Assembly: GCA_019057475.1 (NCBI GenBank)
Contig: DXJO01000041.1
Coordinates: 1-64,000 of the forward strand
DNA length: 64,000 bases
Direction: 5' to 3'
From: Candidatus Thorarchaeota archaeon
Lineage (GTDB): Archaea > Asgardarchaeota > Thorarchaeia > Thorarchaeales > Thorarchaeaceae
Shown: positions 31,470 through 40,745 of the stretch, one piece after another
Position numbering within the stretch: the stretch's first letter is position 1
Layout of the letters: each line of letters begins with the position of its first letter
Made by a program: the position numbers and the translations under genes
Notes under the pieces: model-generated
What the model saw: only the letters and a program-made list of their open reading frames with translations
Databases searched by the model: none
What the model was told of the DNA's origin: nothing

Positions 31470-34400
31470 TTACCACCGTTTACCTTTATGATGATTAAAT
31501 GATATATTGAGTCTGAAACCCGGCTTGTAGGATTTTAGGAACCGGGTGTATGATCGTCTGTACCGTGCTATGACCAACAATGCGATGATGCCCTCCACAG
31601 AGATTACTAGAATCCACATGATTAACATCATCCCCGCAGGAATCTCACCAGGGCCAGATATATTGACCGTGTACTGGCCCGAGCGAACATCCGTAGTTTC
31701 GGATGACGTAATTATGATGCGGTACGTGAAAGCGCCCTCCTCTGCTGGAACCGTCGCTGTGACCGTGAATGTGCCGTCCGGGCCAGTCGTGGTCGGATTC
31801 GTTGTGGTTGTGAAATTAACTACAATCTCGATGTTGCGGTTGGCTATCGGATCCCCATTTTCGTCGATGAGTAGTCCATTGAATGTGAAATTCTGTCCAG
31901 GAGCAACCATTGTGAGAGTGCCAGTCATGTCGAAACTAACGTTGTCTGTAAAGATATGCATCCTTTCAGATGTTTCTGCAGAAGAGGCTAGTACGCCTGT
32001 AGTGCCGGAGTACTCAACCCGTAAAGCGTAATAATCAGACGTGTCCCAAGAAACCGGCAGAGTGAATCTGAATCTGTGTTCACTGCTGGTATTGATTGCT
32101 GCGACGCCTATTGGGGTACTCTCGAGAAGGGTGTCAAGATAGATGTTGACTACTGCCCCCGGTATTGCATTTCCAAGGTAGTCAGCAAGACTGATGATGA
32201 ATGAATAGCTCTCTCCGGGCATAATATCTGGGGGGGTTGAAGGGTCAAAGCGCACCTGTAGGGCCGACTGCGTAAACAATGTGATGATCCATGTGTCCAC
32301 ATTGCTGGTGACATCATAGTATCCGGGCACATTTGCGAGACTGAGTACATAATTTCCGAAAGAATAAGCGGAAGTATTAGTCCATGTTCTGGAAAAATTG
32401 CCGTCCGATTGTGAAGTAGTTGTGAGAATACGACTGCCATCAACCAAGATGTCTAATGTAATTCCGGGAGCTGGCCCACCTCCATTGGAAACATAGCCAG
32501 TCACTATCAAGGATTCACCAATGTTCAGGGCGGTAACTAACTGAACGTTCATGTGCAGTTCGACCGAGTCCCAAATCTCCAGACTTTCGGGAGCGGTCTG
32601 AGCATTCTCGATTGCAGGCGTAGGTGATGAGAATAGAGCATAAATGTTGCTTGGGCCAAGCGGATATATCCAAGGTATGGAGTAGTTAACTGAGAAGCTG
32701 CCCCCACCGACAGTAGTCGCATTCCTGACCGAGACCCCAGCAAGCATAATATCTACAACATAACCCACCATGGGAGTACCATTGGCAAATGTCAGGGTGC
32801 CAGAAATAGTGACTGAAGCCCCCCTATACACTAAGCTCGGAATTGCATTCGCAGTGAGATTGACAGGAATCTGCTGAACCTGAACTGGAATGATAAGCGA
32901 TTGACCGGAACTGATGTAGGAGTCTGCCGGTGTACAGTTGGCCCACACCTGTAGTATCCCCACGGGTACCGCTTCGGTGATTTGGACCACAACCCAGAAC
33001 CGTCCGCTGCCATCAGTGACTAATGACTCTATGAAGAAGTCAACGAAATCAATGCTATGGCGACCCCAGATATCAACGGCGGCAAAGGCATATGGAGTGC
33101 CATTGTCAAGGCTGAGAACACCTGAGATGTTCAAGTTCTCCGAGATGTAGACAGGATTTGGTGTTGCATCAAACGGCACCCAGACCAAAGTATAGGCGTC
33201 AATATCAATCGGGATTGGTATTGCTGTATGATTGTCTATCCAGTTCACACTCGACAGATATCGCACAGTGACATCGTAGCTGCCCGGAGTCGTTGATTGA
33301 GGAATCGTCCAAGAGCAAGTGAAGGATCCGTCAGATGCGGTGGTGTCATTGTCAACCACTCCCACGCCCACAACAAGCATCTCTACAATGACGCCTTCAA
33401 AGGGCACACTCGACCCGTACTCCAGTGTTCCTGTAACCACCACGGTTTCGGTGAGATGGAAGACTGTGATTCCACCAGTACTAAATCCAATGAGTGTCGC
33501 CCATCGTTGAAGGGTTAATGATTCGTGAGTGGATTCAACACCCTCAATGAGCTGAGTGCCATTATAGATCCCGTAGACCTGAACAGAGAGATCCGTGTAG
33601 TCATGCATGCCAGAGTAAGGATGACTCGCCTGACCACTCCCATCGGTAGTCACGTTCGTAATCCATGAAATCCCAGTTGAGTTTTCCCACCATAGCGAAA
33701 CCACTGCACCGCTAATATTAGCACTATTGTGAGAGAAGTAGAGATGAACAGTGATTGTGACAGTTTCGTTCAGATAGACTGAATTGACAAAGGAAACGTC
33801 CAGAGTCACAAGGTAGAGCGACAGAGTTACCGTTTCAGTTGCTGATGTGTCACTCTCCACGTACGGGTTCAGGCTTGTGTAGCTTGCCCACATCTGAATA
33901 TCTTCTGCATCATCACTGATAGAGAGGTTGTAGAGGAAGCTATAGCCGCCCGTGCTGTTAGTTGTCTTCTGAAACGTGAATGTTCCAGAGCTGTTTACAT
34001 AATATATAGTGATGATCTCCCCAGCAAGGGGTGTGCCATCCACAAGAGTCAGATTGCCGGAGAACACGATGACCTCGTCGAGGAAGTGAAAATCTGAGTC
34101 GGGGGTGCCAGTTAGTGTTACCTGGTACAACTGAACCGTTAGAGAAGGCGTAAGAGTTGCTGAAGCGTCGCTCTGAGTTGCTATAGTTGAGTTCCACTCA
34201 ACCCATACTGCGACCGTGCTGGTGGAGTCGCTCAGTGTTAGATTGTAGTAGAAATCGTACCAGCCTGTGGAGTTTGTTGTGGCGTTGAACAGGTATTGTG
34301 TCCCATTGTCCCAGTAGATTTGAATGGTCATGTCTACAAATGGAGACCCATCCGAACCGTTTTGGAGCCTACCCCAGATGTGCACGACCTCATCCAAGTG

Positions 34401-37289
34401 GTAGTGTGTAGCATTGGAATAGACTGAGACGATGCTGCTTAGCCGCTCGATTGTGACCGAAACCGTTGAAGAGTTTGCACCTGCAAACGGAGATATTTCC
34501 ACAAACTGAGCCCATACAGTCACACTTTCATCTAGATGACTGAATGGCACCTCATGGTCATAGACATACCCACCTGTTGCGTTTGAAATTACATTCGTTA
34601 TGTTGAAGGTGCCCGATGAGTTGGTCCACCATATCTTCACGGAAGCGCCAGCAAGCAGCGCTGGGTATTCAGGGACTATTACAAGTCCCTCGATTCTCGT
34701 GGTTTCGAGTGGATGTAAGGTTGTAGGATTGACTGCTATGGTAAGTACAATGTCCCAGTTCTTCACGGTAATTGTCATGCTTGAGGAGGTCGCATTTAGG
34801 TAGTTGGGATCTGAGGACCCCTCCCACTTCGACCAATAGGTTACAGTCCCCATGTCGCTTGGTAGTGCGGTATACTCCAACTCATAATATCCAGTTGCGT
34901 TGGTGAAAACCGTGCCAATCAAGTGCGGTCCCGTCGAGTTCTGCCAATAGATATTGACCCACTTGTTTGCCAAGCCACTACTGTTGATTGGGTCATAGAG
35001 CTGTCCGAATATGGTGATGTTTTCCCAAACGTGAAGGCTTTCTGCGGGTGGTTGCGGTACTGAGTCAATGGTTAGCTCCGCTCCCCGAATGGTAACTTGG
35101 ATAGGCACAGTTTCGCTCCAGTTGCCTAGGACATGATCTATCGTGGAACTCCAATTCGCTCGAGCATTATATGTCCCCGGCGCGTGTGCAGCAGGGATTG
35201 TATAGGGGGCATTGAAGCCACCAGTACTGTTTGTAGTGGCGCTAAACAGGAAATTTCCGTCAAAGAAGAGGCCAATATCCTCTCCGATAAGGGGTGTCCC
35301 ATCCAGAAGTTCGACCTGACCATCGTACGTTATTGATTCCCCTCGAAAGACGGGAGATGGAATAACATTCAGTGTGAATGAGATCTTGCCCCACACATCA
35401 ACGGTCGAGTTGTCAATAGATTGTGCCGGAAATAGATGGGGAACTCCCTGTCGGTACTCCCCTGCGTAAAAGGACCATACCTCGTGCATCCCCGTGCCCA
35501 TTCTCGGGTCAGCGGCGTCCACATAGATGTCTAGCTGGTAGGTGCCGTCAGCCTGTATCGTTGCATTTCCAATCCAAGTTTCATCCCACATAATCTGGAT
35601 CTGGTCGTTGATGAGTGTCGTACCGTTCACTGGTTCGCCTTGCACAGTCATCAATCCATGCGCATGAACTGTGTCTGTCCACACAGAAGTGTAATTGTCC
35701 CAACCGAGTTTCAGATTCACATCGATAGTTTCACTGAAACAGAACCTGCCTTCGCCGAGCGGCTCTGGCTGAGCCACCGCAAAGACGTAGGTGAAGTTGG
35801 TGACGCTGAAACTTCCCTGGTCGTACGTTGCGCTTATGTTGTGAAGACCCAGGTCGGCATCCGGTGGAAATGCATAGGTAAAGTTGGCCAGCGGCCATAG
35901 AGTCCCCTGTACTATCGTAGCAGTGCCAAGATGAAGAGACGCAGTTTCGTCACGGAACCGTATCGTCGCACCCTCGCCTGTAGGCAGGCCCTGAAGCAGC
36001 AAAGCAGCACTGAGATCGAATGGGTCCTCGAGTAACGCCCAGGGCTCAGCCAAGTTAGGCCAAACAAGAACCTGAAGATCTCCTTCTCCAACATTCTCAG
36101 GGATATCCCCCCCACCCATATCATCCGGCAGTGGGATTGGAACTACCTGTATCCACTCGCCACCCCCACCCGACATCGGTATGAAGACCTCAGCCCAGAA
36201 CATCATGTGACGTACTCGCACCACACTATGTGTTCCTTCTTGATCTCCCACAGCATAGCCTATTGTCATTCTAGCGGGAATGTCAAGATAGCGCATGTAG
36301 ACACAGTAGGCTGTGGCAAAGTCCATTGGTAAACCACCACCCCTCTCGATGAACCAATCCGTAACCTCTCGGCCTGGCTCGGGGCGCTCCTGGTAGTTAT
36401 CGAGCGTCAGCTCGAATGTAGTGCGGAAGTAAGCATCGACCAACACGGCCATTTCATAGGCATTGTCAGCCGCTCCTAGGAACTGAGAAGCATTGTCTTG
36501 TACGCGTTGTGAGAGCGGTTCAACATCCTCGAGCGCAGTGTAGGTTGTGTAGATATCTTCCGGGGCGAAATTTCCCGGCATCGCATTGCTCGCGACGTTG
36601 GTTAGGTCTTGTTGCCTGTATGTTACCTCGTAACTGATCAGCACATACTCGTCGCTCTCGCCTTCTATAAGGGGGTTGAACAGAAGTGTGTTGTAATCAT
36701 CTGTTTCAAGGGTGTACTGCAGAAGTAAGCCATTCGGATGGCTTTGAAACGAGTCTTGTATGACTTGGATTTGCGGGAACAATGCAGGCAGCTCAACACT
36801 TCCTGTTGCCCCTCCTGCGGAAACATTGATGAAAATCGTGTAAATCGTGTTGCCTTGGGTTACCGCCTGTGCTCTGGTAATGAGCTCTGTGCTGTCAAGG
36901 GGTCCTGTATCCAATTGTGTCTTGGCCCATCCAGAGCCATCATAGCTATCATAGGCGGTACTGCGCCATAACTGAGGTGGATTATACGGGTCTACGATGA
37001 AGAGCACGTTCTCAAGCTGTTCAAGGAGATTGTCGGGAAGGGTCATGTTAAGTGGCAGGTCTTGATAGGTCACGTTCTCGAACCAGTTACTCGTCCAGTC
37101 ATTAAAGTTAACGTTGATTTCCCATTCGTCAGGAGGATATGGCTCGTGTGGATTTTCCAACCTCACCACACCTGCTTGGATGTTGAGAACGCTCCAAGTG
37201 GCCCAAATTATGGTGGCAACTAGGAATAGTGAGCTGATGAGAGTTATTGGGCTTGCCTTGCGGCGAACACCGGTTTTTGTGGCACTCAA
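31470..37289 (-). CDS. Giant transglutaminase-like (catalytically degenerate) surface protein with many Ig-like repeats and C-terminal TM
   Basis: LWRSTAYDSYDGSGW, DWFIERGGGLPMDFATAY..RYLDIPARM.IGY and FWAEVF, followed by >10 'T(T)N.TG.Y' beta-sandwich repeats. Confidence 0.85.
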   Translation of the reverse strand: MSATKTGVRRKASPITLISSLFLVATIIWATWSVLNIQAGVVRLENPHEPYPPDEWEINVNFNDWTSNWFENVTYQDLPLNMTLPDNLLEQLENVLFIVDPYNPPQLWRSTAYDSYDGSGWAKTQLDTGPLDSTELITRAQAVTQGNTIYTIFINVSAGGATGSVELPALFPQIQVIQDSFQSHPNGLLLQYTLETDDYNTLLFNPLIEGESDEYVLISYEVTYRQQDLTNVASNAMPGNFAPEDIYTTYTALEDVEPLSQRVQDNASQFLGAADNAYEMAVLVDAYFRTTFELTLDNYQERPEPGREVTDWFIERGGGLPMDFATAYCVYMRYLDIPARMTIGYAVGDQEGTHSVVRVRHMMFWAEVFIPMSGGGGEWIQVVPIPLPDDMGGGDIPENVGEGDLQVLVWPNLAEPWALLEDPFDLSAALLLQGLPTGEGATIRFRDETASLHLGTATIVQGTLWPLANFTYAFPPDADLGLHNISATYDQGSFSVTNFTYVFAVAQPEPLGEGRFCFSETIDVNLKLGWDNYTSVWTDTVHAHGLMTVQGEPVNGTTLINDQIQIMWDETWIGNATIQADGTYQLDIYVDAADPRMGTGMHEVWSFYAGEYRQGVPHLFPAQSIDNSTVDVWGKISFTLNVIPSPVFRGESITYDGQVELLDGTPLIGEDIGLFFDGNFLFSATTNSTGGFNAPYTIPAAHAPGTYNARANWSSTIDHVLGNWSETVPIQVTIRGAELTIDSVPQPPAESLHVWENITIFGQLYDPINSSGLANKWVNIYWQNSTGPHLIGTVFTNATGYYELEYTALPSDMGTVTYWSKWEGSSDPNYLNATSSSMTITVKNWDIVLTIAVNPTTLHPLETTRIEGLVIVPEYPALLAGASVKIWWTNSSGTFNITNVISNATGGYVYDHEVPFSHLDESVTVWAQFVEISPFAGANSSTVSVTIERLSSIVSVYSNATHYHLDEVVHIWGRLQNGSDGSPFVDMTIQIYWDNGTQYLFNATTNSTGWYDFYYNLTLSDSTSTVAVWVEWNSTIATQSDASATLTPSLTVQLYQVTLTGTPDSDFHFLDEVIVFSGNLTLVDGTPLAGEIITIYYVNSSGTFTFQKTTNSTGGYSFLYNLSISDDAEDIQMWASYTSLNPYVESDTSATETVTLSLYLVTLDVSFVNSVYLNETVTITVHLYFSHNSANISGAVVSLWWENSTGISWITNVTTDGSGQASHPYSGMHDYTDLSVQVYGIYNGTQLIEGVESTHESLTLQRWATLIGFSTGGITVFHLTETVVVTGTLEYGSSVPFEGVIVEMLVVGVGVVDNDTTASDGSFTCSWTIPQSTTPGSYDVTVRYLSSVNWIDNHTAIPIPIDIDAYTLVWVPFDATPNPVYISENLNISGVLSLDNGTPYAFAAVDIWGRHSIDFVDFFIESLVTDGSGRFWVVVQITEAVPVGILQVWANCTPADSYISSGQSLIIPVQVQQIPVNLTANAIPSLVYRGASVTISGTLTFANGTPMVGYVVDIMLAGVSVRNATTVGGGSFSVNYSIPWIYPLGPSNIYALFSSPTPAIENAQTAPESLEIWDSVELHMNVQLVTALNIGESLIVTGYVSNGGGPAPGITLDILVDGSRILTTTSQSDGNFSRTWTNTSAYSFGNYVLSLANVPGYYDVTSNVDTWIITLFTQSALQVRFDPSTPPDIMPGESYSFIISLADYLGNAIPGAVVNIYLDTLLESTPIGVAAINTSSEHRFRFTLPVSWDTSDYYALRVEYSGTTGVLASSAETSERMHIFTDNVSFDMTGTLTMVAPGQNFTFNGLLIDENGDPIANRNIEIVVNFTTTTNPTTTGPDGTFTVTATVPAEEGAFTYRIIITSSETTDVRSGQYTVNISGPGEIPAGMMLIMWILVISVEGIIALLVIARYRRSYTRFLKSYKPGFRLNISFNHHKGKRW

Positions 37290-38120: not shown

Positions 38121-38699
38121 TCAACCTTGCAGAAAGAGCTCCAAATAGGATGCTCTAATCGATTTATTCGAATCAAGCCCCAGTCGCTCAATGAGGTTGA
38201 ATATTATGTCCAGAGTCGGGTTCATGTCACCCCTCGATGTGACGACACGTTCCAGTTCCAAGAAAAGACCAACGTCCTCCACATCATCGACACTAACAGT
38301 GACAGAATCTACAGTGTAGAACACACGTCGTTTTGAGATGGTGGCCACGTGCTTGAATCCAAGACTCTCTAGGATTGACCGGGCGCTGTTTATGTTGCTG
38401 ATATTTACTGAGAGTTCAACGCGCGATTTGGACCGGGACTCTAGCTTTGGCCCCTTGTAGGTCAGCTCATATGGAGTGGGGATTGTGTTGTCTTTTTCGT
38501 CCCCTTCCACATCGGGATGACGGCTTCTTAGACGAAGAGCCTCGTCGGTTTCTTGAAAAGCCCTTGCAGGATGGTCGAAATAAACATCAACTTGGGTTTC
38601 GCTGTTCATCTTTTGCGCACCAATGCGATGAAGAGCTTCCTCAACGGACTTTCGATTCTCTATCGGTATCTTGACCTCAACCTCAATAGATTCCTTCAT
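38121..38699 (-). CDS. cyaB: CYTH-domain protein (class IV adenylate cyclase-like/triphosphate tunnel enzyme)
   Basis: EVEVK, D.YF..P, DEALRLR, TYKGPK, GLFLELE and SYLEL. Confidence 0.9.
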   Translation of the reverse strand: MKESIEVEVKIPIENRKSVEEALHRIGAQKMNSETQVDVYFDHPARAFQETDEALRLRSRHPDVEGDEKDNTIPTPYELTYKGPKLESRSKSRVELSVNISNINSARSILESLGFKHVATISKRRVFYTVDSVTVSVDDVEDVGLFLELERVVTSRGDMNPTLDIIFNLIERLGLDSNKSIRASYLELFLQG

Positions 38700-38811
38700 C
38701 TAAAACTAGGCTCCTGTCAGTGCATAGGTAAGAACTGCAAAATGACGGGGAAACAAGTCAATAGGTGTTTCCATAGAATCTATTTCTTACATTTCATGTG
38801 AGTGACACTCA

Positions 38812-39220
38812 ACTGCAAGAAATTCCTGTGTTCCACCCGTCCCCTGCCAGTGTCGCCACCTCCCAGACTCCTATAGAGCCTGAGATTAGCAGGGGCTTTG
38901 TCTGTCATCATCGGGATGAGATCCCTCCCACAGTTATGGCTTCTTCCTCCTGTTTCACTACTGGGGTATCACTCCCAGCCACAGAGAGGCTTTCCACAGT
39001 TCTTGCCACGGCGGGGTCCTTATCAACCATCTCAACCTCGTCACCAAGACTGAGAAGGCTCGTCTGAGCATGGTGAACGGCCGCGGACTCCCCAAGACCT
39101 GATACAAGGCCCTTAGAGGAGAGTAAGGACTTCCCTCGAGAAGAGCTCGTCTTCCCTCGGGCTTTCGGGAGTGAGCGTGGACTGCGTGAAACAGCGCTTA
39201 CCCACTTGCCTAGTCCTATC
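38812..39220 (-). ncRNA. Candidate large structured non-coding RNA (~410 nt), family not recognised
   Basis: No credible ORF. At least eight helices are visible, G-U pairs favour the minus strand, and the ends pair (GCAAG/CUUGC). Confidence 0.55.
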
Positions 39221-39389
39221 ATAGTATGTGGTGGCTCTCCAGGACTAATAAGGACTCCACGATTACAATTGTCTAACATTTCAAGTACAACATTATTTGG
39301 GGAATGCAAGATTCCAACCTATCTAGACAGAGGAGGAGAAGAAACACTGTGGTCAGGGACGGTCCCGCAAGCTAGAAATTTTGCGAGTT

Positions 39390-39430
39390 TCCTACATTCT
39401 CAGCTGTAAAGTACTTAGAAGAATGTAGGA
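39390..39430. promoter_or_regulatory. 11-bp inverted repeat upstream of thrC
   Basis: TCCTACATTCT-N19-AGAATGTAGGA. Confidence 0.4.
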
Positions 39431-39491
39431 TTTCACGCATTCCATAACTATCATAACGGAGGCCTGACACGCATTGAAAGCAGGTGTAGCC

Positions 39492-40745
39492 ATGTCAAGA
39501 ATCAAACAGCTCAAGTGTGCCAAATGCGGGAAGGAATACACCGACAAAGATGTGCCGCCCAACGATGGATGCGGGGGAAGAATCGACATATCCTTTGACC
39601 TCGAGGAACTCAAGGAAATCTTCACTAGGCAGAGCGTTGAGCAACGAAAGGGAGGCTTGTGGAAATACTTCGAGCTAATGCCCCTGAAGAAGCGGGAGAG
39701 CGTAGTAACTCTGGGTGAAGGAAATACGCCCTTGTTACGAAGTAGTCGACTTGGGGATCAGTTGAAACTTGGCAATCTGTTCTTGAAGATCGAAACGACG
39801 AATCCCTCAGGATCTTTCAAGGACCGACCGATATGTGTGGGAGTGAGTCGTGCCTATGAGGATGGTGCAGAAACGGTATCTGCAGCATCATCAGGAAATG
39901 CTGCGGCATCCATGTCTACGTACGCTGCTAGAGCGGGAATGCAAGCCGTGGTCTTTGTGCCAGAGGACGCTCCTGCAGGCAAACTCATACATCTCAGGAC
40001 TCTTGGAGCACGCGTATTCAGAGTCCAGAAGGTCAAGGATGGAGTAGATCCCACAACAACCTTGCTCAAAGCTGCTTGTGCAGAACTGGGGTGGACACCT
40101 ACCCCATCATTTGGACCGTTCAATTGCTTTCAGTTCGAAGGCACAAAATCGCTTGGCTATGAGATTGCCGAGCAGATGAACTGGGAGTCACCGGATTGGA
40201 TACTATTTCCCACTGGTAGTGGAGGACTTATGGCCGGGACAATGAAGGGACTATGGGAGTTCCGGCAGATGGGGCTGATAGACAGCCTACCTAGACCAGT
40301 TGTGGTTCAGCCAGAGGGATGTGCACCCATCGTTCGGGCGTTCAAGAAGAATCAAGACCCTCTTGATATCACTCCATGGGACTCGAACAAAACCGTGGCA
40401 GGAGGGCTTGCAGATCCATTCCCGTGGGACGGCGATGCGGCGCTCAAGTATCTGAAGATGGCAAACGGTAGAGCGATTGCAGTACCGGACGATGCCATAG
40501 AGCGGCAGCTTATAGCTCTCGGCAAACTGGAGGGTGTCTTTGCTGAACCGAGTGGTGTTGCAGCATTGGCAGGGCTTGAATCGCTTGTTAACCAAGGGGT
40601 CATCGATAAGTCTGACAGAGTTGTTGTGCCAATAACAGGTTCTGGTTTCAAGGATTTGGTAACGCCTGATCGACTCACACCCCAGGTCGTTCTCATAGCG
40701 CCAGATCTTGACCAGCTGAAAGCTGCACTTGAGAGCAGTACTTGA
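39492..40745 (+). CDS. thrC: Threonine synthase
   Basis: LGEGNTPL, NPSGSFKDR (PLP lysine), ASSGNAA, PTGSGG, FAEPS and ITGSGFKD. Confidence 0.88.
   Translation: MSRIKQLKCAKCGKEYTDKDVPPNDGCGGRIDISFDLEELKEIFTRQSVEQRKGGLWKYFELMPLKKRESVVTLGEGNTPLLRSSRLGDQLKLGNLFLKIETTNPSGSFKDRPICVGVSRAYEDGAETVSAASSGNAAASMSTYAARAGMQAVVFVPEDAPAGKLIHLRTLGARVFRVQKVKDGVDPTTTLLKAACAELGWTPTPSFGPFNCFQFEGTKSLGYEIAEQMNWESPDWILFPTGSGGLMAGTMKGLWEFRQMGLIDSLPRPVVVQPEGCAPIVRAFKKNQDPLDITPWDSNKTVAGGLADPFPWDGDAALKYLKMANGRAIAVPDDAIERQLIALGKLEGVFAEPSGVAALAGLESLVNQGVIDKSDRVVVPITGSGFKDLVTPDRLTPQVVLIAPDLDQLKAALESST

Follow-up and report, generated by a model that had tools for sequence, protein, structure and literature searches.

The closest described relatives of the locus analysed here are the Asgard aCas1-TnpB elements of the Cas1H-Asgard-1 and Cas1H-Asgard-2 groups, in which aCas1 lies beside tnpB, a GTTCACTCA motif follows downstream and aCas1 is proposed to be the transposase (Altae-Tran et al. 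2023, PMC10691335, main text). The main text of that study gives no RNA fold or length, duplication length, mini-elements or leader guide, and suggests a hypervariable stretch upstream of GTTCACTCA as a possible guide. The omega RNA (reRNA) of ISDra2 TnpB has a 231-nt scaffold, with a dispensable 5′ half and a 3′ pseudoknot beside the guide (PMC10097598). Among RNAs that serve CRISPR effectors, the guide of tracr-L partially matches the promoter of its own locus, over 11 bp (10.1101/2023.03.03.530964); that source makes no mention of TnpB.

The window is a 64,000-nt stretch of DNA from a Candidatus Thorarchaeota archaeon (positions 1 to 64,000 of contig DXJO01000041.1; source genome GCA_019057475.1, here G000). 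Within it, a 665-bp unit on the minus strand (38776-39440) separates a CYTH-domain gene (cyaB, 38121-38699, minus strand; Pfam PF01928) from a thrC-like gene for a PLP enzyme (39474-40745, plus strand; Pfam PF00291), both of them host flanks outside the element. On the far side of cyaB, at 31470-37289 (minus strand), the window encodes a putative 1939-aa, repeat-rich surface protein with transglutaminase-like character. The initial annotation had marked a highly structured RNA between cyaB and thrC, and had offered as readings a new class of RNA or ribozyme, a very divergent RNase P/MRP-like RNA, or an orphan transposon-derived omegaRNA. The last of these proved correct, as tnpB-linked homologues, empty alleles and a target duplication attest. 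We hold with high confidence that the structured block is the TnpB omega (guide) RNA scaffold on a nuclease-less deletion derivative of a Thorarchaeota aCas1-TnpB transposon. Filled and empty alleles and the fusion to tnpB were seen directly. The 665-bp unit is a recent insertion that duplicated 6 bp. The same RNA lies 3′ of an intact tnpB in full elements, whose other product is a divergent protein of Cas1/Cas4/RecA fold. The fold of this scaffold is conserved and includes a pseudoknot at the 3′ end, past which conservation ceases.

The parent family fits the published Asgard aCas1-TnpB elements: it has an Asgard (Thorarchaeota) host, a divergent Cas1 next to tnpB and the GTTCACTCA motif downstream of tnpB (compared with the main text of PMC10691335). 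The aCas1-TnpB family, rearranged TnpB and gene-less omega-RNA elements are all already known kinds. Our literature search, which covered Altae-Tran 2023 in its main text, returned no report of a ~443-nt scaffold, of a 6-bp duplication with empty alleles, or of a leader RNA that pairs with the scaffold and carries a guide to its own promoter; a search on TnpB autoregulation returned nothing relevant. The mobility of aCas1-TnpB elements was formerly a prediction only. The cyaB-thrC locus supplies both forms of the allele, filled and empty, along with exact ends and the 6-bp duplication, and so defines 665 bp of DNA on which aCas1 integration could be assayed. It also provides a covariation-backed model of an omega RNA about twice the length of that of ISDra2 and without an Rfam entry, and its family yields a candidate TAM and a putative split-guide autorepression circuit that are open to testing, matters of relevance to TnpB biology and CRISPR origins.

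Filled and empty alleles at the cyaB-thrC site

In four genomes of the same genus (G002, G003, G004 and G006), the CYTH flank is joined directly to the thrC flank. These empty alleles contain a single hexamer, TCCATA in G002, G003 and G006 and the variant TCCAAT in G004. In the source genome, TCCATA stands on both sides of the 665 bp, at 38770-38775 beside the right end (TATGGA on the minus strand) and at 39441-39446 beside the left end, where a 7-bp duplication is possible; G001 also carries a filled allele at this site. Two sister copies elsewhere likewise measure 665 bp, each with its own duplicated hexamer. We therefore take 38776-39440 as the whole of a non-autonomous mini-element, comprising a left end, a putative promoter and the omega RNA.

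A duplicated 6-mer flanks 16 of 44 gene-less copies, against 5.1 expected, and 12 elements combine the duplication with the left-end motif, against 1.6 expected; these 12 have the consensus TCTRGA and include two aCas1 elements. Most copies have no matching hexamers at their two ends, and the non-matching flanks of many may reflect later rearrangement or mis-assembly at repeats. At one locus (L066, G004:C130), a mini-element stands between flanks that are separated by 47 kb in the source genome (C42:83140 and ~36275), through either a rearrangement or a mis-assembly at a repeat. Another copy (L012, G035:C15) interrupts a surE-like coding sequence and is flanked by a clean duplication of 6 bp.

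The left end (39223-39440, minus strand) carries subterminal TCYTACA and TGTARGA motifs (39430 and 39396) in the same register as those at the left ends of aCas1-bearing full elements. This match is one of motif register only: among the loci compared, the left end of the window subfamily has no BLAST match to aCas1-bearing elements, and six-frame translation of the window left end revealed no aCas1 remnant. The left 100-270 bp of the elements varies freely between copies. The two ends are asymmetric and share only the 7-nt subterminal motif, in inverted orientation, with no true terminal inverted repeats. Within 39380-39440, the left-end motifs form an inverted pair, CCTACATTCT and its complement, which could be a protein-binding site or a hairpin.

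A TATA-like box at 39246-39251 (minus strand) lies ~28-33 nt before the first helix of the RNA. Gene-less copies, unlike tnpB-linked ones, have all-AT hexamers clustered between -35 and -27, and on this clustering we infer a promoter. A scan of the locus for sigma-70 promoters, a model ill-suited to archaea, and for terminators was blank.

The block is present in 42 of 60 genomes of the same family, mostly in multiple copies, and in 0 of 40 outside genomes searched; related tnpB loci fall almost entirely in records labelled Thorarchaeota or uncultured archaeon. G000 itself holds seven near-full copies as well as fragments. Two of its copies stand directly behind an intact tnpB of the 558-aa type, after its last motif, with the tnpB frame running on for ~105 codons through the RNA. 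Among 117 copies in the loci compared, roughly half are tnpB-linked and the remainder gene-less. The gene-less form arose repeatedly (13 parsimony changes), and the independent deletions all retain the full ~440 nt from the first helix onwards.

The parent element and its proteins

On contig C42 of G000, 5.8 kb upstream of tnpB, stands the left end of the commonest mini-family, and the stretch between them holds a single 1806-aa gene, which faces away from tnpB. Most full-length tnpB loci with sufficient upstream sequence carry such a divergent large gene (~1800 aa). When residues 1-235 of this fusion protein were compared with known structures, the top 12 VIA rows were all Cas1 or casposase (best Z 13.1, rmsd 3.7, 175 aligned). 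Casposase 6opm matched at Z 10.8 (rmsd 4.0, 193 aligned); Foldseek matched Cas1 only at E 0.07. The Cas1-like region lacks the N-terminal beta domain and has the invariant residues E80, H167, D174, D177 and R180. Residues ~250-590 resemble Cas4/PD-(D/E)xK nucleases at modest scores (Z 6.5-7.6), and residues ~611-850 resemble proteins of RecA/RAD51-like fold (Z 12.6; Foldseek E 2e-6). The remainder of the protein, residues 850-1806, matched no fold and was searched only as part of the fusion. Pfam returned no credible family for the large gene and no Cas1 in G000, and ESM Atlas gave only weak AAA/PD-(D/E)xK leads (0.77). Across 301 genomes searched, the Cas1-like domain occurs in 43 of 76 genomes of the same family and in 3 of 11 of one other family. 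Further aCas1-type genes in G000 (C53:1359-6821 and C54:166210-171540) face another divergent ORF rather than this tnpB, and a serine resolvase gene adjoins the one on C53.

The TnpB partner (Pfam PF07282 and PF01385) keeps the RuvC-I D, a Gly with an alternative Glu at RuvC-II, the zinc finger and the RuvC-III D across 120 homologues. This rearranged RuvC layout is active in TvTnpB (PMC10530073), and by its residues the family TnpB looks catalytically intact.

Neither of the usual classes of tnpB-bearing element accommodates this family. IS200/IS605 elements, which insert 3′ of a TAM, and IS607 elements, which carry a serine-recombinase TnpA, make no target duplication. A 6-bp duplication is present here, and a Y1 transposase (TnpA, PF01797) was not found in G000, which is 96% complete, at odds with IS200/IS605. 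The two resolvase genes of G000 both lie outside the full elements, at odds with IS607. Scarless junctions of the IS605 type have been described (10.1101/2023.03.14.532601). The mini-element resembles the PATE-like IS200/IS605 elements of that study in being gene-less, in keeping both ends and a guide RNA, and in its proposed dependence on proteins in trans; it differs from them in its 6-bp target duplication, in the lack of a Y1 transposase in G000 and in its aCas1 parent.

Casposons (PMC9939771) share with this family a Cas1-fold integrase, a target duplication and frequent tRNA-adjacent sites. The duplication measures 6 bp here, in contrast to 15 bp in A. boonei (PMC9939771), and the Cas1 domain is fused to Cas4-like and RecA-fold domains, with TnpB as cargo. 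Unlike casposons, the 7.6-kb C42 element has no separate PolB gene, fusion residues 850-1806 being thinly tested in this respect, and its asymmetric ends have no true terminal inverted repeats.

Scaffold RNA and overlapping reading frame

From the alignment of homologues, the omega-RNA scaffold spans 38776-39218 on the minus strand, ~443 nt within a family range of 406-461. The words quoted in the initial annotation were found where it had placed them, and its choice of strand was correct; the limits it had set, 38812-39220, fall short at one end, as the RNA continues for ~36 nt more, to 38776.

In a structure alignment of 56 copies (70% mean identity), the consensus fold between 39218 and 38776 has 30 helices, made up of 147 pairs. 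Pairing is present in 90.4% of cells, compared with 41-44% in slid-register controls, and is maintained in gene-less lineages. Double changes occur at 98 pairs, a score that 0 of 500 shuffles reached, although kinship among the sequences inflates the covariation figures. Related sequences can beat a shuffle test. A tree-based null is stricter; by that test three pairs exceed the null maximum, all of them in the predicted fold, and most of the top 30 also lie within it. Part of the sequence conservation of the RNA is owed to an overlapping reading frame.

The claim of a structured RNA thus stands on its homologues, while the single sequence folds near chance: 38812-39220 reaches no better energy than shuffled controls, at z -1.19 for the minus and +0.41 for the plus strand, and the corrected limits give z -1.74. 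The helices that had been proposed from the single sequence fared unequally across 81 copies. CCGCGGC/GCCGUGG (99%), GGGAU/AUCCC (98%) and CCCCUGC/GCAGGGG (96%) hold throughout the family, CUGGG/CCCAG (84%) and CAGGCUC/GAGUCUG (77%) are partly kept, and conservation is lacking for the supposedly terminal GCAAG/CUUGC (71%), for the GUCCUUA hairpin (62%) and for the CUCC/GAGGA pseudoknot (52%).

The 5′ domain (39125-39218, minus strand) is closed by a helix between 39218-39212 and 39131-39125 that is paired in 93% of cells and absorbs one of the RNase P-like words. At the other end of the RNA, 39015-39020 (minus strand) forms the 5′ strand of a pseudoknot with 38780-38775, beside the guide. This helix (helix 14, 89.6% paired) was placed by eye rather than by a prediction program. 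Two of its pairs show 11 and 6 double changes, with CG, AU and UA forms at one position; it lies below the tree-based covariation threshold, and the window copy forms 5 of its 6 pairs, with one mismatch. A 3′ hairpin (38782-38823, minus strand) contains a GTTCACTCA-type motif, here GTGTCACTCA. Over 81 copies, GTTCACTCA is exact in 29 and TCACTCA is present in 49. Directly after GGTTA-T, conservation drops from 1.0-1.8 bits to at most 0.35, the point at which an omega RNA passes to its guide. The flank beyond (38755-38774, minus strand) would be read as the cis guide; its sequence is that of the empty site, where the candidate TAM described below is missing.

The RNA thus has the arrangement of a TnpB omega RNA, overlapping or following the 3′ end of tnpB on the same strand, with a 3′ pseudoknot adjoining the guide and a scaffold that ends at the element end. 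As in ISDra2, it overlaps the 3′ end of tnpB and a poorly conserved C-terminal tail; it differs in being conserved throughout its ~443 nt, whereas ISDra2 has IS605 ends, a Y1 transposase and a TAM at the insertion site. The hypervariable stretch suggested as a possible guide in the main text of PMC10691335 belongs here to a paired stem, complementary to the leader as well, and the end of the scaffold comes ~25 nt later. HEARO/IscB omega RNA, sot and HgcC gave no Rfam match, and the partner is TnpB rather than IscB with the 5′ guide of HEARO.

The initial annotation had seen no credible ORF in this interval. A 104-codon frame (38908-39222, minus strand) nevertheless overlaps the RNA: it starts at an ATG and is a remnant of the TnpB C-terminal tail, with 71% identity to TnpB residues 458-558. 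It is intact in 20 of 21 gene-less copies of the ATG type, the window copy among them. Under a simple model, the frame is broken in 1 of 40 tnpB-linked copies (22.8 expected), in 1 of 21 gene-less ATG copies (8.1 expected) and in 7 of 13 copies without a start codon (5.3 expected), the last group serving as a control for constraint from RNA structure; the copies compared are non-independent kin, and the ATG group is younger on average. These counts indicate that the tail frame is subject to selection.

Leader RNA, candidate guides and competing explanations

In full elements, a short leader between aCas1 and tnpB has as its last word GAAACAGGTCA, which it shares with the large RNA; the C42 leader (L119:6800-6947 in G000) is one of 39 that we compared. 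In 35 of the 39 non-redundant leaders, the next 14 nt match the element's own upstream promoter at 12 or more positions, compared with 2.6% for matches across elements. This leader guide begins exactly after GGTCAG, and identity falls off after 13 nt. Its target lies 92-99 nt upstream, overlaps a TATA-like box and is preceded by CTT(A/C)AT; the candidate TAM, TT(A/C)AT, is deduced solely from this leader target.

The leader is also complementary to the 3′ hairpin of the large RNA (mean -22.4 kcal/mol, shuffled -11.9), own leader-scaffold pairs outperform permuted ones (p 0.0002, a figure inflated by kinship among the sequences), and compensatory changes occur in at least four elements (L034/L048, L171, L179 and L199). 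In the window, 38815-38799 is complementary to the tnpB leader of full elements, with a predicted duplex of -24.8 kcal/mol with the C42 leader.

From these features we propose how the mini-element might work. It would be moved in trans by the aCas1 of a full element, which linkage, common end motifs and the duplication make quite probable. We also think it likely that the RNA is transcribed from its own TATA-like box (39251-39246) and taken up by TnpB made elsewhere; we assign this role to the box because gene-less copies that arose by independent deletion have AT-rich hexamers 27-35 nt ahead of their first helix, whereas tnpB-linked copies do not. As to its main role, the scaffold could act as a tracr-like partner of the leader, whose 12-15-nt guide would direct TnpB to its own promoter beside TT(A/C)AT, where binding without cutting would lead to autorepression. 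This is a serious possibility, to which we give slightly less than even weight. On this reading, the simplest one, the guide would be too short for cleavage, and we draw an analogy to tracr-L, with its 11-bp match (10.1101/2023.03.03.530964). Like tracr-L, CreA and CRISPR-repeat-like RNAs, the leader has a short guide that partially matches the promoter of its own locus. Those RNAs serve CRISPR effectors, whereas the effector proposed here is the TnpB of a transposon, with no CRISPR array. Alternatively, the complementarity of the leader could reflect an antisense effect on the aCas1 transcript, or an inverted repeat that acts at the DNA level in protein binding.

Extending the tracr-like reading, we tentatively suggest a two-RNA TnpB system, in which the 443-nt RNA would be tracr-like, the leader would be crRNA-like, the aCas1/tnpB promoter would be repressed and mini-elements would add scaffold in trans. 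In this scheme the leader would form a 16-20-bp duplex followed by a 12-15-nt guide. If real, such a system would stand as a present-day intermediate, already equipped with a Cas1 integrase, on the way from single-RNA OMEGA to type V CRISPR-Cas.

Several other explanations bear on what the RNA does. Under classical homing, as in PATE-like elements of IS605, the copy would load TnpB in trans and its flank guide would cut the empty allele, so maintaining the insertion. The sharp end of conservation after GGTTA-T, a pseudoknot adjoining the flank as in ISDra2 (PMC10097598), the precedent of PATE-like omega-RNA elements (10.1101/2023.03.14.532601) and the seemingly intact catalytic residues of TnpB would all suit it. 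However, 0 of 12 duplication-confirmed empty sites have TT(A/C)AT before the guide, with no upstream consensus and only the first T of the duplication shared, and genome-wide no G000 guide has a seed of more than 8 nt behind TT(A/C)AT, the combination of TAM and seed standing at chance level. Because the empty sites lack the candidate TAM, homing seems doubtful. Were TT(A/C)AT indeed the TAM, cleavage of the empty site by the flank guide would be impossible, and we expect that the guide of the window copy would probably leave it uncut. A different use of guides, resembling that of CAST elements, would have TnpB mark tRNA or rRNA genes through short fixed guides while aCas1 integrates nearby; mini-elements would contribute additional scaffold, and might also provide an adaptor in the form of the 104-aa tail peptide. 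At least 11 nt of the flank match G000 tRNAs in 6 of 32 aCas1 elements (null 1.6%), seven groups of tnpB elements share 12-19-nt flanks before diverging, several elements adjoin the matching tRNA or 16S gene, and the tail frame appears to be under selection. We nevertheless judge this improbable: the geometry of target and insertion is inconstant, the tRNA targets lack TT(A/C)AT, TnpB has not lost its nuclease site, similar flanks could arise when conserved genes are hit repeatedly, and such a guide is found in 0 of 56 gene-less copies, that of the window included.

The RNA might instead be an inert passenger, kept only for binding sites at the right end, with gene-less copies making no functional RNA. 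The youth of this copy, its near-chance single-sequence fold and its pseudoknot mismatch are compatible with this, but independent deletions keep the full ~440 nt together with a TATA-like box 27-35 nt upstream, and pairing is preserved in gene-less lineages; we accordingly give this explanation a low probability. Self-splicing from host transcripts, as in IStrons, would explain an intron-sized RNA and the copies inside coding sequence (L004, L012 and L060). It is very unlikely given the absence of an Rfam group I or II intron match, the lack of orientation bias (6 sense and 8 antisense insertions, by the longest spanning frame) and the freely varying left 100-270 bp. The least probable reading, which we set close to nil, is a cellular RNA: a divergent RNase P/MRP, SRP or box C/D RNA or a new ribozyme class, as a large conserved fold and short RNase P-like words had invited. 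An Rfam scan of the locus gave no match up to E 10, and scans of four full-element loci gave none on the RNA; the initial annotation had itself seen no canonical P4, SRP helix 8 or group I/II intron core. The sole genome hit to archaeal RNase P RNA (RF00373) is canonical and lies at C42:8090-8434 (172 bits), and the sole hit to archaeal SRP RNA (RF01857) is on C54 (95 bits); because the genome has both on other contigs, the block is neither. The P4 pseudoknot of RNase P (a GAGGAAAGUCC strand with a 3′ CR-V strand) is excluded, as AGUCC is engaged in 96% of cells with a 5′ GGACU of the same RNA, and the RNase P-like words are poorly conserved (16/81, 1/81 and 19/81) or paired otherwise. No conserved box C with a partner box D was found: the box C-like word, RTGATGA, is present in 19 of 81 copies, and the TGA within it, which never varies, is the stop codon of tnpB. 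The RNA is, moreover, multicopy, polymorphic between close relatives and absent from the locus in four congeners; a target duplication surrounds it, and about half of its copies are joined to tnpB. All this speaks against a new cellular RNA.

Some features of individual loci are recorded here in their own right. The 3′ flanks of L163, L165, L172, L168, L193, L167, L194 and L122 match neighbouring tRNA or 16S genes. In L168, the flank apparently matches a tRNA-Asp in intron-less form, the local gene for this tRNA being interrupted by an intron. L122:1-1032 (G000:C9) is a full element directly 3′ of a 16S rRNA gene, with a 3′ flank that resembles a 16S segment. Tandem partial copies of the RNA 3′ end with different flanks, reminiscent of a primitive array, occur in L165 and, downstream of the RNA, in L163; a second 3′-end repeat downstream was found in 2 of 32 aCas1 elements and 0 of 88 others, not clearly above background. 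The consensus 3′ hairpin (38808-38783 in the window) starts with GTTCACT and ends with TAAGAAA, a post hoc resemblance to the Pseudomonas type I-F CRISPR repeat, a string that a literature search located in 11 papers; the best structural matches of aCas1 are likewise to I-F Cas1.
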